The notes below the pieces were generated by a model. The model did not search any database. It was not told the origin of the DNA and was given only the letters and a program-made list of their open reading frames with translations. Positions 3,064 to 16,384 of a stretch of DNA of 64,000 bases are shown here, in pieces. Source of the DNA: an uncultured Bacteroidia bacterium (lineage in GTDB: Bacteria > Bacteroidota > Bacteroidia > NS11-12g > UBA955). The number at the start of each line of letters is the position of its first letter. The first letter of the stretch is position 1. A program made the translations under genes and the position numbers. The stretch is from positions 2,467-66,466 of the forward strand of contig CALKCM010000014.1 in the NCBI GenBank assembly GCA_938086785.1. Direction: 5' to 3'.

Positions 3064-3150
3064 CCTAAACCTAATTTACTAACCCTAAACATTTGGGGGT
3101 AAACTATATATATTTGTGGTATGAAAAAGATGTTATTCTTGGTATTTGCA
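3064..3150 (+). repeat. Promoter + signal-peptide module P, copy 1 (copy 2 at 6281-6367)
   Basis: 87-bp near-identical direct repeat cctaaacctaatttactaaccctaaacatttgggggtaa...tatatttgtg(g/a)tatgaaaaagatgttattcttggt(a/t)tttgca; contains TATATTTG (-7 box) and encodes [10 protein letters not shown]. Confidence 0.95.
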
Positions 3151-4086: not shown

Positions 4087-4369
4087 ACGGCAAATAAAAC
4101 GGGAATCAAGTATGGCGGTAGACAAAAAGGTACAGCAAGGCTTTTACAGGGCTTTTAGAAGGCAATATGGGAAGATTACAAGAGTTGCTCGATAAAGTCG
4201 CTGAAAAGAACCCTCAGAACTAATGTTAAAGCTATCAGAGTTTGTTCTTCCTAACCTAAGAGCTATCGAGGTTAATAATGAGCCAGAGGATAAGCATACC
4301 TCTCTAAATATTAATATAATTGATACTGGAGTTCCTTTGGCGAGTTGTGAAGCTGATGTGGTTGATTAG
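4087..4369 (+). pseudogene. Degraded small-terminase-like (GGRxKGT motif) gene, copy 1
   Basis: Begins with ACG (possibly a mutated ATG), then ANKTGIKYGGRQKGT; continues through frameshifts as GLLEGNMGRLQELLDKVAEKNPQ...LKLSEFVLPNLRAIEVNNEPEDKHTSLNINIIDTGVPLASCEADVVD*. Confidence 0.6.
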
Positions 4370-4402: not shown

Positions 4403-5812
4403 ATGAAGTTTTCCAGTAAAGTAATACCGCTTATCCTATTATTCTTTTTTGCAAATGATGTTTTAGCACAAAAAATCATTAAAGCTAAAAAAGTAACCAC
4501 ACACAATGGTCTGGTTTGTTATGTGAAAAAATTAACTCCAGTTACTGGAAGAGTTTCAGAGGAGTTTCAAAACATAAAACAGCTAAAGTCTGAAACTGAC
4601 TATATAGATGGTAAGAAAGAGGGTTTGTATAAAGAATGGGATAAAAAAGGGAAGTTAAAGATTAATGTAAATTATATCAATGGTTTAAAAGATGGCTTAT
4701 GTAAGGAGTGGTACCATAACGGGCAGATAAGTAAAGAACAACATTATAAAGACGGTAAGAAAGATGGCTTATGTAATGAGTGGTCCTATGACGGGCAGAT
4801 AATTAAAGAACAACATTATAAAGACGGTAAGAAAGATGGCTTACATAAGGTTTGGCGCGAAAACGGGCAGATAAAGTCTGAAATTAACTATTTAGATGAT
4901 AAGATAGACGGCCTCTGTAAACGCTGGTCAGAAAACAGCGGAAAATTAACGGAAAACCGAAACTACAAAAATGGGCTTCCCGTTGAAGTGAGTGCTTACG
5001 AAATAGAGTTTAAAGGTTCAGATTACTTGTCTGAACTTTGTTATTACAAAAATAAATCAATTCTTTTCACTGGAAGAGTTTCAGAAAAGTTTCTAAACAT
5101 AAAACAGCTAAAGTCTGAAACTGACTATATAGACGGTAAGAAAGATGGCTTACATAAGGTTTGGTTTGAAAATGGCAATTTACGAGCTCAGGGTAATTAT
5201 AAGGAAGGTAAACGAGTGGGTTTGCATAAGACTTGGTCCAAAAACGGGCATTTATTTTTTGAGGGTAATTATAATGAAGGTAAAGAAGTGGGAGTTCGTA
5301 AATTCTGGCACGAAAACGGGCAGTTATACGGAGAAGAAAATTACAATGATGGTATGAAGGTTGGTTTATGGAAGGAGTGGTACGAAAACGGGCAGATAAA
5401 GAAGGAGGAAAATTACAATGATGGTATGGAGGTTGGTTTATGGAAGGAGTGGTACGAAAACGGACAGATAAAGAAGGAGAAAAATTACAATGATTATACA
5501 GAAAAGGAGTGGTATGAAAATGGGAAGGTAAAACCAAAAACCTATACCTTCGATGAAGCAAATAGGTTTATGAAAAGTCGTTGTAGAAAAACTAACCATA
5601 CTATATTAAAGACACATAGTTACACTTTTGAAGGAACTGTGGTATATTGTTTTCTTACTTGTAACTCCGATATGTTAGACCCCTATAAGAGAGTTGCCCC
5701 TAAAAATCAGTCAGTATGTATTAGTATGATATCTGAAAAAAAACTTGAAGTTATAGCAGCTGATTGTGGCTCTCAAGATAGAAAACTACGAGATTGGGAA
5801 AATCTTTTTTAA
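4403..5812 (+). CDS. Secreted MORN-variant repeat protein (YwqK-like family)
   Basis: Signal peptide, many GxKxGLxKxWYxNGQI repeats and a Cys-containing C-terminal domain; TATATTTG promoter at 4390-4397. Confidence 0.9.
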   Translation: MKFSSKVIPLILLFFFANDVLAQKIIKAKKVTTHNGLVCYVKKLTPVTGRVSEEFQNIKQLKSETDYIDGKKEGLYKEWDKKGKLKINVNYINGLKDGLCKEWYHNGQISKEQHYKDGKKDGLCNEWSYDGQIIKEQHYKDGKKDGLHKVWRENGQIKSEINYLDDKIDGLCKRWSENSGKLTENRNYKNGLPVEVSAYEIEFKGSDYLSELCYYKNKSILFTGRVSEKFLNIKQLKSETDYIDGKKDGLHKVWFENGNLRAQGNYKEGKRVGLHKTWSKNGHLFFEGNYNEGKEVGVRKFWHENGQLYGEENYNDGMKVGLWKEWYENGQIKKEENYNDGMEVGLWKEWYENGQIKKEKNYNDYTEKEWYENGKVKPKTYTFDEANRFMKSRCRKTNHTILKTHSYTFEGTVVYCFLTCNSDMLDPYKRVAPKNQSVCISMISEKKLEVIAADCGSQDRKLRDWENLF

Positions 5813-5838
5813 AAAACAGTCTTATTGCTCCACTTATA

Positions 5839-6039
5839 GGCAAGGTCCAAGAACTCTTCGATAAAGTCGCTGAAAAGAACCCTCAGAAAGCATTAGAATT
5901 ACTCTTAAAACTATCTGAATTTGCTTTACCTAAACTACGAGCTATTGAGGTTAATAATCAGCCAGAGGATAAGCATACCTCACTGAACATAAATATTATT
6001 GATACTGGAGTTCCTTTGGCGAGTTGTGAGGCGGATTAG
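5839..6039 (+). pseudogene. 5'-truncated small-terminase-like remnant, copy 2
   Basis: ~200-bp diverged direct repeat of 4169-4369 (GKVQELFDKVAEKNPQKALELLLKLSEFALPKLRAIEV...LASCEAD*). Confidence 0.7.
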
Positions 6040-6083: not shown

Positions 6084-6227
6084 ATGTTTGATAGGGCATC
6101 GTCCTTCAATCAAGATTTAACTCAGTGGTGTGTGACTTTAATTCCAAAGGAGCCACTTCTTTTTTCAGGGTCTGGTTGCCCTTTAACTCCGGCAAACAAA
6201 CCCGTATGGGGCACTTGTCCCCCTTAA
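6084..6227 (+). pseudogene. Orphan DUF285/BspA last repeat + C-terminal cap
   Basis: In-frame MFDRASSFNQDLTQWCVTLIPKEPLLFSGSGCPLTPANKPVWGTCPP*. Confidence 0.9.
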
Positions 6228-6231
6228 AAAT

Positions 6232-6282
6232 AGAATAGGCTTTATTCCCAATTACTGACAGTAAACCATTGGGCTATATACC
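6232..6282. repeat. Non-coding element E, truncated copy 1
   Basis: agaataggctttattcccaattactgacagtaaaccattgggctatatacc, matching the 7116, 14471 and 16084 copies; runs directly into module P. Confidence 0.9.
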
Positions 6283-6367
6283 TAAACCTAATTTACTAAC
6301 CCTAAACATTTGGGGGTAATATCTATATATTTGTGATATGAAAAAGATGTTATTCTTGGTTTTTGCA
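6281..6367 (+). repeat. Promoter + signal-peptide module P, copy 2
   Basis: Direct repeat of 3064-3150; TATATTTG at 6326-6333, ATG at 6338. Confidence 0.95.
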
Positions 6368-7111
6368 GCAATTGTAATGTTGGCAACAACATCAAGTAGT
6401 TTTTCAGGAGATGTTGGAAATAAGAATAGTAACAATAGCGAATGTATTAAGTGTAATGAATTTGAGGTTGGTGAAACTTTCGAGCTTGATGGTGTCACCT
6501 ATACGGTTGCGGATAGGAAAATGTTAGATGAAGCATTCGAAAAAGGTAAAGACTTGACAAAATATTGCACATCTAAAGTGGCTGATATGAGTAGTATGTT
6601 TACGAGAGCTAAATCCTTCAATCAAAATATTGGCAGTTGGGATGTGAGTAATGTGACTGATATGAGTGGGATGTTTTCGTTTGCTACATCCTTCAACCAA
6701 GATATAGGCAATTGGGATGTGAGTAATGTAACTAATATGGGGGGTTTGTTCTTACAAGCTGCATCCTTCAACCAAGATATAGGCAATTGGGATGTGAGTA
6801 ATGTGACTGAAATGAGTATTATGTTTTATAAAGCAACGTCCTTCAACCAAAATATTGGCAATTGGGATGTGAGTAATGTGACTAATATGTATGGTATGTT
6901 TGGGTTTGCTAAACTCTTCAACCAAAATATTGGAAATTGGGATGTGAGTAATGTGACTGATATGAGTAGGATGTTCTATGATAATCCATTATTCAACCAA
7001 GATTTATCACAGTGGTGTGTGTCAAAAATCCCTTCCATCCCGGTAAAATTTTCTTATATAAGCGGATTAACTCGGGCAAACCAACCTATATGGGGTACTT
7101 GTCCTCCTTAA
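6338..7111 (+). CDS. DUF285/BspA-family leucine-rich-repeat surface protein
   Basis: Signal peptide, CxxC N-cap, five 25-aa [25 protein letters not shown] repeats (75-bp period from 6584), terminal repeat and WCV...PIWGTCPP cap. Confidence 0.95.
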
Positions 7112-7115
7112 AGAC

Positions 7116-7244
7116 AGAATAGGCTTTATTCCCAATAACTGACAGTAAGCCATAGGGTTATATACCCGTTCTGAGCAAAGCCTTCAAATAAGAAGCCTAT
7201 CTTTTAAAGGGGTGTGGGGGTGTTAAACAAGAAAAAATAGTTCG
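7116..7244. repeat. Non-coding element E, copy 2
   Basis: Aligns by eye with 16084-16208 and 14471-14583 (tatacccgttctgagcaaag..ttcaaa.aagaag...ggtgtt.aa.aa.aaaa.tagttcg). Confidence 0.95.
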
Positions 7245-7255
7245 TTTTTTTCACG

Positions 7256-7281
7256 TTTTACTGACAGTTTTTACTGACAGT
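7256..7281. repeat. Tandem 13-bp direct repeat (ttttactgacagt x2), integrase arm-site-like
   Basis: Perfect tandem ~110 bp from the tRNA-fMet 3' end; the TTACTGACAGT core also occurs within element E. Confidence 0.8.
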
Positions 7282-7349
7282 TTTGTATATTCGTATAAAT
7301 CGTCAGCCCTTTAAAACCGGGTGATACGCAAAAGTAGAGTAGATGTCAT

Positions 7350-7378
7350 AAAAAAAGCCTCACATTTCTGTAAGGCTT
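7350..7378 (-). terminator. Terminator downstream of tRNA-fMet
   Basis: Minus strand AAGCCTTACAGAAATGTGAGGCTTTTTTT hairpin with U-tract. Confidence 0.8.
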
Positions 7379-7389
7379 GTATTTACTAG

Positions 7390-7461
<72 letters not shown>

Positions 7462-7555
7462 ATATATCTTTTTCTGCTTGCTGTGAAGCAGAAGATTCGC
7501 TTAAAAAAAGAATTAAATTAACTCCTCTAAAACCAATCTGTTTGTCTCAAATAAC

Positions 7556-7570
7556 GAGGTGCAAATCTAA
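7556..7570 (-). promoter_or_regulatory. Bacteroidota -7 promoter for tRNA-fMet
   Basis: TTAGATTTGCACCTC (TAnnTTTG); the identical 15-mer lies upstream of tRNA-Glu at 16396-16410. Confidence 0.7.
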
Positions 7571-7944
7571 CCTTAAATTCTCAATTGTACAAAAGGGAGC
7601 CGCTTTTATTTTTTAAAATATACTTGGCAGAGGTCGCACTACAGCAAAGGGAATAGCACTGCTCAAAATGCCCTGGATCTATACAATGGTTCATGATCTC
7701 ATCATAAATTAATCTCATGATAGCAAAAAAGAACGGCATAAATAAAATCGTAGAAGCCCGTTTAAGCTATAATTAAAGTCAAACGAATGTCAGATTGAAA
7801 TAATTTTATAGCTAAAATAATATCTTTAAGTGATTGAATTATATGTATACTTAAGTAGGCATTTCAATTTTATTTTTTTTGATGAATGAGTAAACTTTCT
7901 TAAAAGTAATTATGTTCCTCTCTATGAATTCATAAAAATAAAAT

Positions 7945-9084
7945 ATGATTAGAAAATCACTCAAAAACGCCTTAATCCTTATTGCCGGTCTATCCATGAC
8001 CGCAGCAGAAGCTCAAACCAATGTATATGATAATGTCATAGCTGTGAGTCCTGTACACACCTCCTTAAAAGCTGCAGTAGATAAAGCTGGCCTTGCCAGC
8101 GTACTTAAATCTGCAGATTCCAATTATACAGTATTTGCGCCGGACAATGCTGCTTTTGATCAATTGGCCAAAGACTTAAAAACAGACATTGCAGGATTAT
8201 TAGCCTTACCCAATTTAGCTGATATTTTATTATACCACGTTTTGGGAACCGAAGCAAAAGCTGCTGACGTAACAAACGGAGCTTTAGTAAACCCATTAGG
8301 AGGAACCAACAGCATTAAATTAACAAAATCAAAAGATGGAATGTCTATCCATGCCAATCAAGCTTTAGTAAATAGAGCCGATGTAGATGTAGATAATGGA
8401 GTAGTACACTCTTTAAATTCTGTACTCTTAGCTGGTGAAACAGTAGTAGATATTGCCTTAGATAATGGGTTTACCTCGCTAGCTGCCGCAGTAATAGAAG
8501 CGCGATTATTACCCGCTTTAACTGACCCATTTGGTATTGTAACTGTATTTGCACCAACCAATAAAGCCTTTGATGATTTTGCAAGTGCAAATAAATTAAC
8601 TATTGCTGAGCTTTTAGCCCTTCCAACTTTAGCCGATGTACTTACCTACCATGTAGTAAGTGGTTCAGTTAAAGCAGCAGATTTAACCAACGGAAATGTA
8701 ACTACCTTAAATGGAAAGGACGTGTTGGTAAATTTAGCCATGGGAGTAAGAATAAACAGTGCTACGGTAACCAAAGCAGATCTTACCGCTTCAAACGGTG
8801 TGGTGCATGTGATTGATGAAGTATTAGACGAAAAGTTTCTGAGCAGTAAAACACTTAATGCTCAAGTTATTTCTATTTATCCAAATCCAAGTTCTTCAGT
8901 AGTAAACATTGCCTTAAATAGTTCAAGTCCTTATTATATTACAGATATGACAGGAAGAGCCGTACGATCAGGAGTATTGTCAGAAAACACCTCTATCGAT
9001 ATTTCAGGCCTAACCAATGGAACATATGTATTAAACATTAATGAAGCAGACGCGAAATATGTCGCAACCTTCATCAAAAACTAA
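7945..9084 (+). CDS. Fasciclin (2x FAS1) domain protein with T9SS type-A CTD
   Basis: TVFAPDNAAF/TVFAPTNKAF, LLYHV and NGVVH motifs; C-terminal IYPNP...GTY...FIK. Confidence 0.93.
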   Translation: MIRKSLKNALILIAGLSMTAAEAQTNVYDNVIAVSPVHTSLKAAVDKAGLASVLKSADSNYTVFAPDNAAFDQLAKDLKTDIAGLLALPNLADILLYHVLGTEAKAADVTNGALVNPLGGTNSIKLTKSKDGMSIHANQALVNRADVDVDNGVVHSLNSVLLAGETVVDIALDNGFTSLAAAVIEARLLPALTDPFGIVTVFAPTNKAFDDFASANKLTIAELLALPTLADVLTYHVVSGSVKAADLTNGNVTTLNGKDVLVNLAMGVRINSATVTKADLTASNGVVHVIDEVLDEKFLSSKTLNAQVISIYPNPSSSVVNIALNSSSPYYITDMTGRAVRSGVLSENTSIDISGLTNGTYVLNINEADAKYVATFIKN

Positions 9085-9103
9085 CATTTTATTTTTCTTT
9101 CTT

Positions 9104-9129
9104 AAAGGCGGCCTTGGTCGCCTTTTTTT
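9104..9129 (+). terminator. Rho-independent terminator
   Basis: aaaggcggcc-tt-ggtcgccttttttt between convergent genes. Confidence 0.8.
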
Positions 9130-9157
9130 ATGGTATTTCTTTATATAGTTTATGTTC

Positions 9158-10003
9158 TTAAGGTTCAATGATTTCCATAAATAACCTAAACCCTACTTCG
9201 GGATGGCCCCATCCTTCGTATTTTTGAGACTGATCCGCATAACACTCAGAGATGAAACTATTCCAGCCTCCTCCTTTGGCTTTTCCTTCCTCCGAAACCA
9301 TTTCTGCTACATTTCCAATCATATCAAAAAGGCCATTTGCATTCATTGGATATTCGCCTACTCGGTTCATATATAAGGCTTTATCAGCCATGTATTCAGG
9401 AGCAGTTCTTCCTTCTGCTTCTACTATGGCAAATTTAATGTTAGCCATATACTTTAAATCGCTCGTGTAGCCTTTATCGCCATACCAAGGCAATTTTCCA
9501 CCAGGTAAGCAACTCGTTGCCACAATCCATTCCTCCTCTGTCGGCAATCTAAACGCTACCTTTTGGTAGGTTCTTTTTTTCATCGAGTTATACTCTTTCG
9601 TGAGCCATTTGCAATATTCCAATGCAGCACTGTATTGAATATTAACAATCGGGTAATCTCCATAAGCTGAATTTGAATGGTAATGTCTCATTAGTGACGA
9701 CGTATATGAATACGGATAAATCCTACTCCAATTTAGGGAGTCATACATGCATTGTTCATACAAGGCAGTATCATTCTTTCTTAGATGGTCAAGAAAGACC
9801 TTATAATTCGAATTTGTCAATTCATATTTGTGACATAATAAATTTTTGTCCAGAACTGGAATCTTTACAAAATTCTTATCTATCTGCTTAGAGGAAATAC
9901 TGCTATTTGGCCGCACGACTCTTCTTACAGTGAATCCTAAAATGGATGTTATAAGTATGCAGAGCAACATAAGTTTTGAGGATATTTTGAGTTTATGCAT
10001 CAT
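9158..10003 (-). CDS. FGE-sulfatase (SUMF1/GldJ/K-like) domain protein
   Basis: YPIVNI, FRLPTEEEW, NANGLFDMIGNVAEM, KGGGW and VGFRL motifs. Confidence 0.9.
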   Translation of the reverse strand: MMHKLKISSKLMLLCILITSILGFTVRRVVRPNSSISSKQIDKNFVKIPVLDKNLLCHKYELTNSNYKVFLDHLRKNDTALYEQCMYDSLNWSRIYPYSYTSSLMRHYHSNSAYGDYPIVNIQYSAALEYCKWLTKEYNSMKKRTYQKVAFRLPTEEEWIVATSCLPGGKLPWYGDKGYTSDLKYMANIKFAIVEAEGRTAPEYMADKALYMNRVGEYPMNANGLFDMIGNVAEMVSEEGKAKGGGWNSFISECYADQSQKYEGWGHPEVGFRLFMEIIEP

Positions 10004-10388
10004 TAAGTGATTTAAGTTTAGAACGTTTTATACTTGAAATTTATTATTTTGACATTTTTCGATGGATTCATAGCTATCTAATTTGGCTGATGCTTCATTT
10101 CTCGAAAAGCGAAAATAGGTTATTATATTGGAACATATAAATTCAGTCTTGGATAGTGGGTAAACGTTTAAATGGGTCCAGAGAGAGATAGAAAGAGGAA
10201 TTAGATGAGGAATATGAGAATTACAGGAATTATTGTAAGTGTTTGGAAGCCAGATGAACCTCCTTTATTAAGTTCATTTAAGCTGAGATTAAAAGAATTT
10301 ACTGAAGATTTTTTATATATTGCTGATAGGCATACATCTAAAATATTAGCTTATCGATAGGTAAATACCCAGTCAAGAAAAACCAGAT

Positions 10389-12131
10389 CTACTTTACAAA
10401 TTTCTTATGATAGGTCTGATTGCTATCGTTATTACTTAATAAAATAAAATAACTGCCTGATTTAAGCGATTCAATATTAATGGTTGTATTCGTTAAATCT
10501 CCATTCATCACTATCTTGCCCAAAGCATTAAAAATACGGTATGAATCCATTTTTACGTTTGAACTTACAGTGATTTGATTTTGTGCAGGATTTGGGTAAA
10601 TGCTAACTTCATCTCTATTTAATCTTTCATCATGATTATCACTTAAAGTAGAGGACCTCTGAATATCATCAAATAAAAACGTAGCCTTAGCTGATGCATC
10701 ATTTTGTGTTGCATAGCCTAGCATCAAGGTCAAAACATTATAAATGGGGTTGTCAAAGTTTGTAAAGTCCCAGGCATAGGTTGCCCATTCGCCAGAAACT
10801 GTAGTTAGTGCATCTCGTTCATCTGCGAAACCTGCTACATTACTTTCTATTTTAAATTTTAATATTGTACCAACAGGTGCATCTGTATATACTTTCATAG
10901 ATATAGATCCAATAGTAGAAAAGTCAGGAATAAATTCTGTTAATGCCAACTTGCTTTTTGCCCAAGGTGCTCCACCACTTCTAACGAACTTTCCCACCGT
11001 AGCACTAGGATTGTTAGCGTCTATATATGGATTTGGGATAACAGTGGTTATTCCTCCGTCCTCATTTATAAAGTCTGAAGTCACGACACTTGATTCAAAT
11101 CCAATGGGAAAAGTAGTTGCTCTAGGCTCAGGTATTACTGGGCCTACTTCTTGTTGTATATCATCAAACAGAAATATTGAAGTGGATGTCCCATCTCCTA
11201 TATTTCCAAAATCAAAAAGGAATTGTATTCTATCATAATCACTGGCTTGTTTGTGAAAATTCCATGTTGCAGTTTCCCATGAGCCAGAAACGGTAGTTAA
11301 ATAATCTATGTTTGTTTTGCCATCTGCGTTTTCTAATTCCAACTTAATTCGAGTTCCCACAGGGGCTGTTGTATACACTTTCATAGATATTTGCCATTGG
11401 GTTGAAAAATCAATGTTCTTATCAATAAATATTTTACTTCCAGCCCAAAAATCACCCCCATCGCGTATAATTTGGGCTACCTTGGCACTTGGATTAATTC
11501 CGTCCACCCGAGGGTTTGCAATGACCATTGCAGTTGCTCCACTGAAATTTAAAAAGTCAGTATCCACTTCTCCCATTTCGAAATCAATGGGTAAAGAAAG
11601 TTTTGTTGGGGCTTTGGGTCCAGTTACTTGTTCAATATCATCAAAGTAAAACGTGGAATTGGCAGAACTATCTCCTACATTTCCAAAATCAAACATAAAA
11701 ACAATCTCATTAAGAGTATTAGGTATACCAACAAAGGTCCATTCCAAAGTTTCCCATGCGCCAGAGACAGTTGTAATAGCATCCATATCTACAGATGATC
11801 CCGACCCTTCCAATTTAAACTTAACCTTTGTACCTGCGGGCGCAGAGGTATATACTTTCATTGAAATTTTTGTCAATACAGAAAAATCAAGATTTTTAGT
11901 CAATAAAATTTTACTGCCAGCCCAAATGGCTTCCTCGTTTCTAATAATTCGCGCAACAGAATCGCTGGTATTAATTCCCGATGGATTCGGGTTGGCCGTC
12001 ACAATTCCCACTCCTCCATCAAAATTAACGAAGTCCTTGGTTGTAACATCTCCTTCGAAATGAATAGGTAAGCTCTGGGAAAATCCTGATTGTGCAATCA
12101 GTAAAATGAGTATTAGATAAGAGTTCTTCAA
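10389..12131 (-). CDS. T9SS type-A secreted protein with three tandem CBM-like beta-sandwich domains
   Basis: TTG at 12131 gives signal peptide MKNSYLILILLIAQSGFSQ; three ~155-aa repeats (PIxFE...ISMKVYT.AP.GT...FDDI); IYPNP CTD. The ORF-track extension to 12284 reads through the end repeat. Confidence 0.85.
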   Translation of the reverse strand: MKNSYLILILLIAQSGFSQSLPIHFEGDVTTKDFVNFDGGVGIVTANPNPSGINTSDSVARIIRNEEAIWAGSKILLTKNLDFSVLTKISMKVYTSAPAGTKVKFKLEGSGSSVDMDAITTVSGAWETLEWTFVGIPNTLNEIVFMFDFGNVGDSSANSTFYFDDIEQVTGPKAPTKLSLPIDFEMGEVDTDFLNFSGATAMVIANPRVDGINPSAKVAQIIRDGGDFWAGSKIFIDKNIDFSTQWQISMKVYTTAPVGTRIKLELENADGKTNIDYLTTVSGSWETATWNFHKQASDYDRIQFLFDFGNIGDGTSTSIFLFDDIQQEVGPVIPEPRATTFPIGFESSVVTSDFINEDGGITTVIPNPYIDANNPSATVGKFVRSGGAPWAKSKLALTEFIPDFSTIGSISMKVYTDAPVGTILKFKIESNVAGFADERDALTTVSGEWATYAWDFTNFDNPIYNVLTLMLGYATQNDASAKATFLFDDIQRSSTLSDNHDERLNRDEVSIYPNPAQNQITVSSNVKMDSYRIFNALGKIVMNGDLTNTTINIESLKSGSYFILLSNNDSNQTYHKKFVK

Positions 12132-12230
12132 AATGGCTTTAAAAATTTGACACAAAATTAACTCCTGAATAGCTCTCAAACAAAACAACGGTTTTAAAAA
12201 ATATGGCTGAAACTTATTAGTTAAAGAACC

Positions 12231-12295
12231 TAAACCGATGCCTTGTGACATAAAAAAACCTATAACCGAATGTGAAACAATCAATTACAGGTTTT
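12231..12295. repeat. tRNA-Glu-flanking end repeat R, copy 1
   Basis: 55-bp core 12241-12295 is identical to 14615-14669 and 16252-16306. Confidence 0.97.
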
Positions 12296-12404
12296 AGTGG
12301 TAGAGGCTGTGAGGCCGAAATCAAATTTGTAGACTTATGCCATATTTAAACCAAATCCATTGGTTCGATAAATGTTTTGCAGTTATAAAACTGCTGGGTA
12401 TTGT

Positions 12405-14276
12405 TTAGCCTTCGCCATTGCGAAAACCATCAATATCGTACCCTTCTAATCTGCCATTGCTGTCAAAAGGAAAAAATGGAAACAGCAACTCATTTTTTAG
12501 TTTTTTATTGTAAGCCTTTTTAAGTGCTTTATCCATGGTCTTTGGTTTAACATCATAGTGTGCTATAATTTTATCCAAAGACAGATTAATTATTGTTATG
12601 AAGTTCACATATTGAACTATTGAAAGACCTTCCTTGAATTGTCCATTTTTTAAATTGTTCATTACCTCCGAATAGGTTATATACAATAGCTTTGTTTTTT
12701 TGGTGAGATTAAGTTCCTCTATTTGTCTTGATTTTGATTCAAATTGTTCTGAAATTAATCGGAATTTTCTAATTCCCTCGAGGCGATCGTCCAACATATC
12801 TTTTAATCCATCAATAACACTAGCTTTATTACAATAGAGATAATATACTTCTCCGTCACTTTTTGAGGACGAGGGATTCGTTAAGCGATTTGGATTAAAA
12901 TATGCTTTCGATTGATAACTCTCTTTTAATACATCATTAATATCCAGATCATTCAAACTATTTATCGCTCCCTCCTGAAAGTATCGATAAAAAGCCATAT
13001 CCTTAGACTCAAGGGAAGAGGTTATTATGTTTTCTTCTTCTTTAATCCTTTTACTTAGGTTTGAACTTAGTGAATTAACTTCTCTCTTTGAAATTAATAT
13101 TTTACTTAGGGAATCGGCTTTATCAAAGGAGATCTGAGTTTTTTTATCCAATCTTTTCAAGTCACTTTTTTTATATCTGTAGCCAGTATATTGTTTGATA
13201 TACCTTTTAACATCGTTATAAGAGTTAAAGGCGTCAAAATATAATCCAGAGCTAAATGACTTTTCTGCTTTTTCGTAGCCCCTGATGTTGTCCATTTTAG
13301 AGAATTTCGCCTTCTCAAGAACTATGTTACATCCCCCAGATATAGACTCACTTCTACTGTAGCGTTGGTAAGTTAAATCACCTGTGATATGTTTGTATAA
13401 AAACCAATCTGATTTCATCATGTACTTAAAGTAATCTTGAATGTATTTAGTCGGAACACTGTTGTAGCATAAGGTATCTAAATCGTAACCCGCGTTTTCG
13501 AGTTCTTCCAAAGAAGCTCTTTTTAAATCTAAAAATCTTTGATTCCTCTCAGCATTTAACTCAGGATTTAAAGATGTTGAACCATCCAGTATTTGCCCGC
13601 TGCCATTACGACCAATAAAATCTGTCATATATTTATCTTTAAATGTAATTTCAAAAGTTTGGTTTTTATTTAAAAAATCCAATTTCCACGTACCATTAGA
13701 ATAGCTATTTAGATCATAGTTTCCATTAACTTTTAATACACCTACTTCATTAATAATTACATTGCCTACAATTCTTCCTTTGCTAAAATTCATACTCGTG
13801 GTTATATTATTTTCTGGATTGTACGCTCCCCAACCGGTGTACCTACTATACAACCTTGTTTTATTTTTAGAGTAATATTTCCAATTTCCGTCGGCTAAAC
13901 CATTTTTGTAATTGGCTGTCAACGTTATAGTCCCAGTAGCGTGATAATATCCCAAAAAGTAATCATTCATAACAAGTTTGTACGTCCAGGTTCCATGCTT
14001 GAGTCCCTTTTCATAATTCCCAGAAATGGTTTGTCTTAGCCCTTTATTATCGTCTTTGCCATTTAAGCTATAGTTAAAGGCTCCTTGCTTGACATATTCT
14101 CTTGTTTTTGGATCTTCATAGTATTTATAATCTGCTTGACCCGGTTGATTACTTCCGTTAGCAAATGAGCCACTATAGGTCTTTAATGACTGTCCATAAC
14201 TGCCCGCAGATATAAATAAGAATAGTGAACATAAGCAGGTCGACAGATTGATTTTTCTCTTTCTAATATAATTCAT
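12405..14276 (-). CDS. Secreted hypothetical protein: N-terminal MORN-like beta region, helical C-terminus
   Basis: ATG at 14276 follows the TAACTTTG promoter (14283-14290); signal peptide; GNYEKGLKHGTWTY and ANYKNGLADGNWKY motifs. Confidence 0.8.
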   Translation of the reverse strand: MNYIRKRKINLSTCLCSLFLFISAGSYGQSLKTYSGSFANGSNQPGQADYKYYEDPKTREYVKQGAFNYSLNGKDDNKGLRQTISGNYEKGLKHGTWTYKLVMNDYFLGYYHATGTITLTANYKNGLADGNWKYYSKNKTRLYSRYTGWGAYNPENNITTSMNFSKGRIVGNVIINEVGVLKVNGNYDLNSYSNGTWKLDFLNKNQTFEITFKDKYMTDFIGRNGSGQILDGSTSLNPELNAERNQRFLDLKRASLEELENAGYDLDTLCYNSVPTKYIQDYFKYMMKSDWFLYKHITGDLTYQRYSRSESISGGCNIVLEKAKFSKMDNIRGYEKAEKSFSSGLYFDAFNSYNDVKRYIKQYTGYRYKKSDLKRLDKKTQISFDKADSLSKILISKREVNSLSSNLSKRIKEEENIITSSLESKDMAFYRYFQEGAINSLNDLDINDVLKESYQSKAYFNPNRLTNPSSSKSDGEVYYLYCNKASVIDGLKDMLDDRLEGIRKFRLISEQFESKSRQIEELNLTKKTKLLYITYSEVMNNLKNGQFKEGLSIVQYVNFITIINLSLDKIIAHYDVKPKTMDKALKKAYNKKLKNELLFPFFPFDSNGRLEGYDIDGFRNGEG

Positions 14277-14470
14277 TTTCGCAAAGTTATACAAAGTATG
14301 TTCTAGGGAATAGCCCATTTGCAGCCCATATATAGTAGAATATTATTTGAGTAAATATGTTGTAAAAACGCATCATAGATTTGTGGTATAAAAAATATAT
14401 TTGTATTTTTTCTGTTGTTCGGGATAGTTCTCTTCGGCTGTAAGAAAAAAGATGTTGAAACCTCCGATAA

Positions 14471-14681
14471 TCCCAATTACTGACAGTAAACCATTGGGCT
14501 GTATACCCGTTCTGAGCAAAGCCTTCAAATAAGAAGGCCTTATTATAAAGAATACGGAGGTGTTGAATAAGAAAAGTAGTTCGGATTTTTTTGGGATTTA
14601 TCTGTAAACCGATACCTTGTGACATAAAAAAACCTATAACCGAATGTGAAACAATCAATTACAGGTTTTTAAGTGTAGCCC
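14471..14681. repeat. Element E (copy 3) + end repeat R (copy 2) + partial tRNA-Glu 3' end (att-like)
   Basis: ~210-bp direct repeat of 16095-16318, ending in aagtgtagccc, which is the tRNA-Glu 3' end and flank. Confidence 0.95.
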
Positions 14682-14809
14682 CTAAGGTTCGATTCTCGAA
14701 CACTTTTACTGAGAACTTAAGCGAGCTGTACAACTTGAAACATTTACTTATAGAGCAAGAAATCATTGGTGATGGTGGCGGTTCCCTTTATTTAAAAGGA
14801 TTTCCTTAA
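14675..14809 (+). other. Putative att junction / recombinase C-terminal tail remnant
   Basis: Reads VAPKVRFSNTFTENLSELYNLKHLL..., starting exactly where the tRNA antisense reads VARRGIEP; gtagccc-c-ta-a-gg vs gtagccc-g-ta-g-gg, and tcgaac is retained. Confidence 0.5.
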
Positions 14810-14963
14810 TATTCTAATATTCCTTAGAGTCATTAAACTACAGTAGATAGATAACTTGGTAGATTTATTATTATTAAAGAGATAGACTTACTAAGGTTAG
14901 TGTTCACGCCAACACCTCCTTATTGTCAATAATTGGCAAATTATAATTGTTTACTTTTGGCAA

Positions 14964-16070
14964 ATGAAAAAATTATTTTTAGCAATATTAGTTTTAGGTG
15001 CAATTCTAAATGGCTGCAAAAAAGAAGAGGTTGTAGAAACCACAAAGGAAATAGTTAGCACCGCTTCAGACTTGCCTCAAGTTACCACTGGGAATCCAAT
15101 AGTTACAGATACTGCTTTAATTTTATCTGGAGAAGTTACATTTACTGATGGAGACGATTCTACTACAAGAGGAATCTGTTGGAGTGAAAGTCCAAATCCA
15201 ACAACAAACGACCAAAACTATCTGGATACCGCAACTGGTTTAGGTACTTTTAGTGTTAATGTATTCTCTCAACTTGAACCAAATACAAATTATTATATTC
15301 GAGCATTTGCTGAGAACTCGGTAGGTAAAGTATACGGAAATGTGGTTTCTTTCACTACAAATTATTTTAATCGTAATAATGCATATATAAATTCAAAAGG
15401 TTGCTTGGAATGTAATAAATACGAAGTAGGAGACACTTTTACAATACAATATACTAATTATATAGTTGCAGACAGAGAAATGCTTGATGACGCATTACAA
15501 AATGGCGAAGATTTAACAAAATATTGTACATCCAAAGTGACTGATATGTCAAATATGTTTAATGGCGCTCAATCCTTCAATCAAGACATAGGCAATTGGG
15601 ATGTAAGTAATGTGACTTCTATGGGTGGTATGTTTCATATGAATGAATCCTTCAACCAAGACATTGGCAACTGGGATGTAAGTAATGTGACTGATATGTC
15701 AGCTATGTTTCAGATTACTCAATCCTTCAATCAAGACATAGGCAATTGGGATGTGAGTAATGTGACTGATATGTCTGGTATGTTTACAGCAGCATACGTC
15801 TTCAATCAAGACATTGGTAATTGGGATGTAAGTAATGTGACTAATATGGTTATTATGTTTGCATCAGCATACGACTTCAATCAAGACATAGGCAACTGGG
15901 ATGTAAGTAATGTGACTTCTATGCGAGGGATGTTTAATATGAATGAATCCTTCAACCAAGATTTAACTAAATGGTGTGTAAAAAATATCGCTGTAATGCC
16001 AGATTTTTTTTCCGCAAATAGCAATTTTTCAATTACATATCATCCAGTATGGGGCACTTGTCCCCCTTAA
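14964..16070 (+). CDS. DUF285/BspA LRR lipoprotein with N-terminal Fn3-like domain
   Basis: Lipobox LNGC; RGICWS..PNPT...LEPNTNYYIRAFAENSVG; five 25-aa repeats from 15543 plus terminal repeat and HPVWGTCPP cap; TACTTTTG promoter at 14952-14959. Confidence 0.95.
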   Translation: MKKLFLAILVLGAILNGCKKEEVVETTKEIVSTASDLPQVTTGNPIVTDTALILSGEVTFTDGDDSTTRGICWSESPNPTTNDQNYLDTATGLGTFSVNVFSQLEPNTNYYIRAFAENSVGKVYGNVVSFTTNYFNRNNAYINSKGCLECNKYEVGDTFTIQYTNYIVADREMLDDALQNGEDLTKYCTSKVTDMSNMFNGAQSFNQDIGNWDVSNVTSMGGMFHMNESFNQDIGNWDVSNVTDMSAMFQITQSFNQDIGNWDVSNVTDMSGMFTAAYVFNQDIGNWDVSNVTNMVIMFASAYDFNQDIGNWDVSNVTSMRGMFNMNESFNQDLTKWCVKNIAVMPDFFSANSNFSITYHPVWGTCPP

Positions 16071-16083
16071 AAATAGAATATCG

Positions 16084-16312
16084 ATAGGCTTTATTCCCAA
16101 TTACTGACAGTAAAGCATCGGACTATATACCCGTTCTGAGCAAAGTATTCAAACAAGAAGCCTATATTTTAAAGGGGTGCGGGGGTGTTAAACAATAAAA
16201 ATAGTTCGGATTTTTTTGGGATTTATCTGTAAAACGATACCTAAAACGATACCTTGTGACATAAAAAAACCTATAACCGAATGTGAAACAATCAATTACA
16301 GGTTTTTAAGTG
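16084..16312. repeat. Element E (copy 4), tandem 12-bp repeat (taaaacgatacc x2, 16230-16253) and end repeat R (copy 3)
   Basis: Direct alignment with 7116-7244, 14471-14670 and 12231-12295. Confidence 0.95.
16263..16307 (-). terminator. Terminator hairpin downstream of tRNA-Glu (also present in the R copies at 12252-12295 and 14626-14670)
   Basis: Minus strand ACCTGTAATTGA/TCGGTTATAGGT stem with G-U pairs, followed by a U-tract. Confidence 0.7.
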
Positions 16313-16384
16313 TAGCCCGTAGGGGAATCGAACCCCTCTTACATGGATGAAAACCATGCGTCCTAGCCGATAGACGAACGGGCC
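16313..16384 (-). tRNA. tRNA-Glu (TTC)
   Basis: GGCCCGTTCGTCTATCGGCTAGGACGCATGGTTTTCATCCATGTAAGAGGGGTTCGATTCCCCTACGGGCTA cloverleaf. Confidence 0.97.

Follow-up and report, generated by a model that had tools for sequence, protein, structure and literature searches.

A recurrent 115-bp non-coding element in tRNA islands of uncultured marine Bacteroidia: a candidate inner module of integrase-less cassettes

Why should the same stretch of about 115 non-coding bases stand at the tRNA-proximal end of islands at two different tRNA genes? The question is raised by a 64-kb stretch of DNA from an uncultured Bacteroidia bacterium (contig CALKCM010000014.1 of assembly GCA_938086785.1), referred to here as the window, in which this element, which we call E, precedes tRNA-Met(cat) and again tRNA-Glu(ttc). 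Our favoured answer, to which we assign a probability of about 0.5, is that E is a conserved inner module at the tRNA-proximal end (attL, the P'-arm end, in the terms used for attachment, or att, sites) of integrase-less cassettes at tRNA 3' ends that resemble cis-mobilizable elements (CIMEs). The anatomy contained in this answer, in which E lies as an inner module by sites of arm type within integrase-less cassettes that accrete at tRNA genes, is well supported. As to function, we favour a role at the level of DNA, as a candidate site for an accessory protein and/or, together with a second element named F, as a conserved flank for the exchange of cargo; the main rival is that E is a neutral relic. 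In what follows, coordinates given without a label refer to the window, G000 is the source assembly (1.54 Mb in 22 contigs, about 70% complete) and C denotes its contigs, while other genomes and individual loci carry G and L numbers, respectively.

E was found on the + strand at 7116–7244 next to tRNA-Met (conserved core from about 7140 to 7250), at 16084–16208 next to tRNA-Glu, at 14471–14583 as an inner copy within the array at tRNA-Glu, and at 6232–6282 as a truncated copy in which the 5' 50 nt are joined to a module comprising a promoter and the start of a lipoprotein gene. Direct reading of the sequence, repeat grouping and BLASTN all returned these four copies at the positions given in the initial annotation of the window. 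In the repeat grouping, 7119–7260, 14460–14601 and 16084–16225 form one family and 6183–6282 pairs with 7067–7166. A BLASTN search of the entire assembly with the three long copies as queries yielded five places and nothing else, with 82–92% identity and E-values of 1e-15 to 1e-42. The copy at tRNA-Met matches that at tRNA-Glu with 89.7% identity over 126 nt (E-value 3e-42), the inner copy with 82.2% over 118 nt and the partial copy with 92.2% over 51 nt, and the fifth place is a copy on another contig (G000:C4:135–251; 88–91.5% identity). An nhmmer profile recovered the Met copy at 7125–7261 (117 bits), the Glu copy (128 bits) and both the inner and the truncated copy. The degenerate G tract of the inner copy had at first been taken as a sign that older cassettes decay; the same subtype of E stands directly beside a tRNA in the sister genome G001 (92% over 113 nt to the E at tRNA-Met/tRNA-Ala), and the tract therefore provides no evidence of decay. 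In the inner copy a single base change also creates a perfect 6-bp hairpin at 14521–14538 (GCCTTC...GAAGGC), which was flagged by a terminator scan and is absent from the other copies.

The order DUF285 gene, E, short tandem repeat, terminator and tRNA, proposed from the first inspection, is right at both loci. On the Met side, the cargo of the last cassette is a DUF285 lipoprotein gene at 6338–7111 (+ strand; PF03382, 3e-69), separated from E by 5 nt. E is followed by a tail module at 7245–7354 (+ strand) with two direct repeats of TTACTGACAGT at 7258 and 7271 (13-nt period), by the intrinsic terminator of the tRNA at 7355–7378 (− strand, from the terminator scan) and by tRNA-Met(cat) itself at 7389–7461 (− strand and so convergent with E; ARAGORN and Rfam). 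On the Glu side, the last cassette carries a DUF285 lipoprotein gene at 14964–16070 (+ strand; PF03382, 1.5e-66), 14 nt from E, and the tail at 16209–16311 (+ strand) contains two AACGATACC repeats at 16233 and 16245 (12-nt period) and then a two-way terminator hairpin that was judged by eye and not called by the terminator scan. The convergent tRNA-Glu(ttc) lies at 16312–16384 (− strand; ARAGORN and Rfam).

Further inside the Glu island the unit boundaries are repeated. An inner tail at 14584–14687 (+ strand) carries a second terminator together with about 9 nt from the 3' end of tRNA-Glu, a probable displaced att copy (14605–14687 against 16242–16324, 96%), and a third copy of the tail end and terminator, without E, lies at 12231–12297 (+ strand; weaker repeat match at 12231–12313, 81%). 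At least three units are therefore arrayed in tandem on the tRNA-Glu side. Where the tRNA would stand after the third copy there is instead an F element at 12298–12374 (+ strand; nhmmer, 22 bits), and a weak F-like stretch at 14677–14750 (+ strand), at the left end of the last Glu cassette, was recognized by eye against F sequences only and not reported by nhmmer. The inner E is fused straight to the remnant of a lipoprotein signal peptide at 14398–14470 (+ strand), recognized by eye from its likeness to the beginning of the gene at 14964, with the gene body deleted.

F is a recurrent non-coding module of 75–100 nt that begins GTAGAG[GT]CT, is bracketed by GAGTAG-like repeats and holds an inverted repeat of lox/dif type with arms of about 8–12 nt and a spacer of 7–8 nt. 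It was seen both after E, tail and terminator in the place of the tRNA and at the far ends of cassettes (12298–12374 in the window; L012, L021, L030, L032, L038, L041, L042 and others). A faint reversed likeness to tRNA-Glu, noticed by eye, raised the idea of a decayed tRNA-Glu, but the Rfam tRNA model gave no match to F at E-values up to 10; a weak match to an unrelated small RNA (sRNA) model lies far under the threshold of that model. The repeating unit thus reads F, cargo (0 to about 5 kb), E, tail, terminator, and then the tRNA or the next F, a pattern that the Glu array of the window matches. In two loci the cargo is missing and F directly adjoins E.

The same arrangement recurs beyond the source genome. 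A DNA search of close relatives, the second family included, matched E in 9 of 61 genomes, and across the whole order E matched 15 of 191 genomes at E-values up to 1e-4, namely 1 of 124 in the family of the window (G000 not counted) and 13 of 66 in the other family. An exact-pattern scan of all prokaryote species genomes returned 89 stretches, mostly chance matches, and the nhmmer profile confirmed E in 16 of them, which are metagenome-assembled genomes labelled Bacteroidia, Bacteroidota, Bacteroidetes or Flavobacteriales and one 'uncultured bacterium' (labels for all but three). In marine metagenomes, where loci were viewed within ±2 kb, a stricter pattern gave 60 stretches and E was confirmed in all 60. 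Relatives and metagenomes pooled provided 96 distinct E sequences, 78 of full length and 18 truncated.

What follows E was counted for 64 full-length copies with at least 300 nt of downstream sequence, using ARAGORN with linear topology. A convergent tRNA was present in 27, its 3' end 66–203 nt from E: tRNA-Met in 11 (two different genes), Glu in 7, Asn in 4, Arg(cct) in 3, and Ala and Pro in 1 each. The association with tRNA islands that had been suggested for E thus extends, with six anticodon classes, to other genomes. A further 12 copies precede F, in place of the tRNA, and 2 precede a tRNA of the same direction. On the opposite side of E, a cargo open reading frame (ORF) of at least 90 aa lies within 500 nt in 47 loci, with 20 in the direction of E and 27 opposite. 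In a Pfam search of 44 of these ORFs (the 47 minus duplicates), DUF285 was found in 6, proteins with type IX secretion system (T9SS) tails in 5, and MORN, SRAP, YgjP, TM2, an outer-membrane barrel, DUF481 and an insertion sequence (IS) transposase in a single case each; about 20 had no Pfam match. A tyrosine integrase (PF00589) was found in none of the 44, nor was an integrase found by Pfam among the 19 ORFs of the window from 1 to 20 kb. The source genome has PF00589 matches on C3, C4 and C7 only, and among 17 such matches in five E-bearing genomes only that of C4 adjoins an E. In one complete genome (L145/L146; G051:C1:3038000–3045000), tRNA-Met and a decayed tRNA-Glu stand 6 kb apart in facing orientation, with an outward-pointing E copy at each end; an IS21 element, a MazG-like gene and an FG-GAP/T9SS gene lie between them, and a degraded integrase and primase-like genes (DUF6371, Zn_ribbon_16) lie 10–13 kb beyond.

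After the shared TAGTTCG, the initial annotation described ends specific to each tRNA. Comparison across genomes shows instead one tail beside different tRNAs. The tail built on TACTGACAGT repeats accompanies initiator-type tRNA-Met in three genera, tRNA-Arg(cct) in L168 and F in L021; the tail type of 7245–7354 is also present in the other family, beside tRNA-Met, tRNA-Arg or F; and the CGATACC-repeat tail stands beside tRNA-Glu and tRNA-Arg(cct). Only the last ~50 nt, the terminator, track the identity of the tRNA, and the ends after TAGTTCG are shuffled modules. Every tail opens with two direct repeats 11–13 nt apart. These look like arm-type integrase sites, and we treat them as putative ones, because the same repeats flank the att core beside integrase genes. 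Such repeats, which belong to the tail and not to E, were found on both sides of an att core and beside an integrase gene at C4, at four further loci, at tRNA-Pro and at tRNA-Lys.

On C4, a 5-kb integrative element (G000:C4:440–5532) occupies tRNA-Met beside tRNA-Ala, with a direct repeat of about 100 bp at both ends that consists of the terminator and 66 nt of tRNA-Met. Its integrase gene (PF00589) is split into ORFs 495–944 and 976–1554, and intact copies of 353–365 aa are present in three other genomes. The 18-nt motif AACTG[TC]CTNANNACT[AG]CC has only three occurrences in the 1.54-Mb genome: once in the tail after E (C4:269), once where the displaced partial tRNA gives way to the integrase gene (C4:475) and once inside the element at its right end (C4:5427). 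It stands by an integrase gene in 4 more loci, in other genomes. At tRNA-Pro, TGCAAAT pairs flank a partial tRNA on both sides, next to an integrase-like remnant (L170) with an Arm-DNA-bind_5 match of 20.9 bits, under the Pfam cut-off; in a relative, an intact element at tRNA-Lys shows a clean att repeat together with GGTTGTCGG pairs on each arm. Two pairs of loci capture the state before and after integration. In the sister genome G001, E, tail, terminator, tRNA-Met and tRNA-Ala are unbroken, and in G000:C4 the integrase element sits in that same tRNA with E and its tail pushed outward. At tRNA-Pro, L201 is intact and L170 is occupied. An E unit in tandem with an integrase element at one att site is present in G000:C4 and in G088, while L170 retains only the integrase-like remnant.

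Of the 15 E-positive genomes, 8 contain a close relative of the C4 integrase (two of them as short fragments only), versus 4 of the 176 others in the order. Both E and the C4-type integrase are confined to the same few genera, whose members as kin are not independent, so that this co-occurrence is no independent test. Two observations concern the integrase itself. The gene at G000:C4:994–1642 is 94.5% identical over 649 nt to its counterpart in another family (G088:C2, L152:475–1123), with 88% identity in the tRNA flank and about 80% in E, which points to a recent horizontal transfer or possibly to mis-binned contigs. In addition, integrases that are 91–96% identical have a partial tRNA-Met as neighbour in one genome and tRNA-Asn in two others (L225/G039, L227/G081, L229/G047), and the T-arm region common to these two tRNAs may be the target of this integrase.

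Constraint on E was examined with 21 sequences collected by BLAST and not by pattern, on a parsimony tree with 5000 simulations. Of 114 columns, 26 are invariant, versus 10.3 ± 2.6 expected and a maximum of 21 in the simulations. Invariant positions are concentrated in TTCTGAGCAAAG, ATATTTTAAA, the G-run and the T-run, giving near-invariant blocks of 7–12 nt. The identity of E remains near 0.81–0.84 whatever the divergence of the tail, and E is retained with at least five unrelated tail types as well as in empty units where F abuts E. Where two copies of E are at least 90% alike (24 pairs), the tail is common to both in 11 pairs and the upstream sequence in 7. The closest relative of the tRNA-Met copy of G000 is the tRNA-Arg copy of G001 (94%), that of the tRNA-Glu copy is the copy on C4 (91.5%), and that of the inner copy is the tRNA-Met/Ala copy of G001 (92%). 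Judged by these comparisons, E subtypes, tails and cargo have separate histories, as expected if cargo moves between islands in the way the initial annotation had suggested.

A structured non-coding RNA, another of the earlier suggestions, was not borne out. Rfam gave no match on E at E-values up to 1, RNAalifold found 0 pairs with 21 sequences, and with 66 sequences it found 6 weak pairs on the + strand, mostly G-U and with 0 compensatory changes, and 0 pairs on the − strand; single-sequence folds were ordinary (z of −0.57 and −1.94). A coding function was discarded, as the longest frame is broken by stops in several copies and the length of the G-run varies (by eye). No conserved inverted repeats were found in E. 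A miniature inverted-repeat transposable element was likewise rejected: inverted end matches reach only 6–8 nt in copies of this genus and are not kept in the other family, and no duplications were seen by eye. E seems to be a DNA-level part of decayed mobile elements and not an RNA gene.

In the reading we favour, E belongs to small cassettes that pile up in tandem at tRNA 3' ends in one order of uncultured marine Bacteroidia and resemble cis-mobilizable remnants of tRNA-targeting tyrosine-integrase elements. The direct-repeat pair of the tail, one helical turn apart, looks like arm-type integrase sites, and new integrase elements entering the tRNA shift older E units inward. E would act in the form of double-stranded DNA rather than as an RNA or a protein. 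Its invariant blocks, each about 10 bp long, are probable binding sites for an accessory recombination protein, such as a bending factor or one of excisionase type, and E and F together may offer a patch of homology for cargo exchange between islands at different tRNAs. The attP site of lambda combines arm-type integrase sites with sites for accessory factors. The tail repeats resemble lambda-type arms in forming direct-repeat pairs about one helical turn apart, on both sides of the core and by an integrase gene, and E would correspond to the accessory-factor part. Unlike in lambda attP, E lies farther from the core, and integrase elements exist at the same tRNAs without E. Of what was originally proposed for E, a discrete, conserved non-coding module at the tRNA-proximal ends of islands is supported, and in several genomes; that it acts in cis we infer.

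Several observations weigh against this reading. The distance from E to the tRNA, about 170–330 bp, is larger than in typical attP arms. The integrase element on C4 has no E at its own tRNA-proximal end, and three loci with an intact integrase of 353–365 aa (96%, 95% and 94% identical) lack both E and the tail on the far side of the partial tRNA; given such E-free elements at the same tRNAs, E is not required for integration by that integrase. No element carrying both an integrase and E was found among the loci, and no bridging or excision joint was seen in the contigs of four DNA runs, which break at E, tail and DUF285 repeats. No arm repeats are visible at the left ends of the window cassettes, and 23 of the 64 copies counted above have neither tRNA nor F downstream. 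Finally, the identity of E is 0.838 versus 0.874 for the adjacent tail over 125 pairs, E being lower in 82, although the pairs were picked by tail identity, which favours the tail.

The main rival, which we consider doubtful and yet the strongest of the alternatives, is that E has no sequence-specific function and is a leftover of an ancestral backbone that travels with att arms, spreads horizontally and serves at most as passive homology. A neutral relic would fit an element that is no better conserved than the neighbouring tail, without which integrase elements work, whose spread through the order is patchy (15 of 191 genomes) and of which 18 of the 96 distinct copies are truncated, several of these running, across a short G-run or microhomology, into a promoter or into the end of orfX, a small ORF discussed below. 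The integrase gene shared at 94.5% over 649 nt between the two families adds that recent transfer alone could explain the likeness of E. It fits less well with the strongly uneven substitutions and near-invariant blocks of 7–12 nt, with an identity of E that stays at 0.81–0.84 despite divergence of the tail, and with the survival of E whole in 'empty' units abutting F and beside at least five unrelated tail types. The initial annotation had set divergence at the rate of neutral flanks as a sign that E is only a flank; the uneven substitutions argue against such divergence, while E being no better conserved than its tail argues for it, and neutrality is not cleanly rejected.

A functional alternative, which we regard as improbable, is that tRNA genes host a system for the capture of cassettes, akin to an integron without attC hairpins or IntI, with E and F as its fixed docking platform. 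Unrelated genes would insert either way at the junction of F and the 5' end of E, and E would be a putative protein-recognized site for movement in trans between tRNAs and between families. Like integron attC, E is a conserved non-coding site at one end of each promoter-poor, arrayed cassette; unlike attC, it has no conserved hairpin inverted repeats and no adjacent gene of IntI type, its arrays lie at tRNAs, and the cargo takes both orientations. An attC site proper was rejected, given that E lacks conserved inverted repeats and has no integrase nearby.

It is a little more improbable again that E is a transcription signal or an unstructured sRNA, the signal being an outward promoter into the tail and att site, the RNA a leader or an sRNA. 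Visual inspection of the 3' end of E shows TTG, about 20 nt and then TTTTTTTG, which we take to resemble the −33/−7 promoter consensus of Bacteroidetes, and in some loci a TTTG at the 5' end of E lies 20 nt from the TAnnTTTG box of an outward-facing cargo gene. The TTG reads TTA in about half of the copies, however, a sigma-70-type scan, which does not cover Bacteroidetes promoters, was empty in E, and the Rfam and folding results given above speak against an RNA product. Cargo lies in both orientations and many copies are situated between two terminators; a promoter or 3' untranslated region belonging to the cargo was rejected on the same grounds, as the cargo faces both ways and many copies come after the terminator of the previous gene.

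A role of E in packaging, as a pac/cos site, or as an origin of transfer (oriT), by which cassettes would leave in capsids, in vesicles or by conjugation, seems to us very unlikely. The idea draws on the G-rich tract within AT-rich DNA and on satellite-like remnants in the islands. The tRNA-Met island contains a small mobile-element ORF, orfX, at 5782–6039 (+ strand) and a second, frameshifted copy at 4122–4369. A homologue of orfX lies in an intact 5.5-kb satellite-like element at tRNA-Lys of a relative (L223, G044), in the order integrase, HTH_17, further genes, orfX and Terminase_4, and another lies 2 kb from an integrase (L221, G051); with homologues inside satellite-like elements, the tRNA-Met island therefore holds remnants of satellites resembling phage-inducible chromosomal islands (PICIs). 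A supposed likeness of orfX itself to a small terminase was dropped, as it had no Pfam match at E-values up to 10 and no PHROG match up to 0.01. The initial suggestion of a packaging site finds no support in the distribution of E: nhmmer confirmed it in 0 of 7 pattern matches in IMG/VR, a second pattern gave 0 viral matches there, BLAST found no match among INPHARED phages or PLSDB plasmids, and the intact terS-bearing element L223 contains no E. Conserved inverted repeats, usual at oriT, are lacking in E, and Pfam revealed no relaxase or terminase gene beside E in the loci scanned. GGTGTT hybrids had also suggested that E is homologous to the 3' end of orfX; with two E profiles, nhmmer found nothing in orfX even at an E-value of 100 and no E in orfX-bearing loci, and the E/orfX hybrids are treated as microhomology joints.

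That E is merely the 3' flank co-duplicated with DUF285 paralogues, the explanation named at the outset as the one that could overturn the proposal, deserves hardly any credence: both tRNA-adjacent copies of the window follow DUF285 genes, DUF285 is the commonest single neighbour (6 of 44 ORFs) and DUF285-like remnants precede E in some further loci (by eye), but 38 of the 44 neighbouring ORFs have another family assignment or none at all, the orientation is opposite to that of E in 27 of 47, and E abuts F without an intervening gene.

Three known systems resemble the islands described here. The accretion of CIMEs has been defined, with a three-step model, for elements of the ICESt1/ICESt3 type in streptococci (PMC5704250). 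Like CIMEs as presented there, E units are integrase-less, appear to keep ends derived from att, stand in tandem with each other and with integrase elements at the target gene's 3' end, and are displaced inward as new elements arrive (PMC5704250). They differ in being very small (0 to about 5 kb), in occurring at six or more tRNA genes and in keeping one conserved non-coding module, E, whatever the type of arm site or tRNA; the mobility of E units is putative. The tycheposons of Prochlorococcus islands are stacked, tRNA-targeted elements with partial tRNA copies between them, scattered remnants, and both cargo and PICI-like (terS) forms (10.1101/2020.12.28.424599). The E islands are similarly marine and streamlined, with stacked tRNA-targeted units, remnants, and cargo and terS forms (10.1101/2020.12.28.424599). 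They belong to another phylum and have other integrases, the E units themselves are devoid of a recombinase, and no replication module was found; the tycheposon account, in the part considered here, describes no common non-coding junction element (10.1101/2020.12.28.424599). The two before/after pairs, G001/C4 and L201/L170, correspond to the accretion process outlined for CIMEs (PMC5704250) and to the stacking of tycheposons (10.1101/2020.12.28.424599). The islands are also akin to the additive flexible genomic islands at tRNA genes of Alteromonas, with their cassettes and repeats, for which the portion of the account used here gives no conserved 115-bp module shared between tRNAs (PMC4898812). 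A non-coding module common to islands at different tRNAs is not described in these accounts of CIMEs, tycheposons and additive tRNA islands, as far as the sections consulted extend; our search covered those three concepts only, and novelty is not claimed.

Islands of this kind matter in that tRNA-adjacent flexible regions hold much of the strain-level gene content of marine bacteria, and the way in which genes without a recombinase enter them and move between them is poorly understood. With E and F bracketing cargo at six or more tRNA genes in two families, cassettes become countable and their turnover traceable in metagenomes, and a model of trans-mobilization or of homology-driven exchange becomes testable with a defined DNA substrate. 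If E binds a specific protein, it would be a new cis-acting component of tRNA-targeting elements in Bacteroidota; if not, it would still be a useful marker of decayed elements.

Some smaller features of the window concern the joints between modules. In the near-identical metagenome loci L189 and L207, the DUF285 stop codon is separated from E by a terminator hairpin, of which the window retains only the 3' half (GGCTTTATT), at 7109–7125 and 16068–16090; DUF285 transcripts therefore probably read through E there. The module of promoter and signal peptide, a TATATTTG box followed by ATGAAAAAGATG, is present at 3064–3150 and 6281–6367 with 94% identity and also in L014 and L011; a short G-run links it to truncated E copies. 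In L164, L162 and L032, truncated copies of E are joined at GGTGTT to the last codons of orfX, and such short microhomologies seem to be the break points of the island mosaic.

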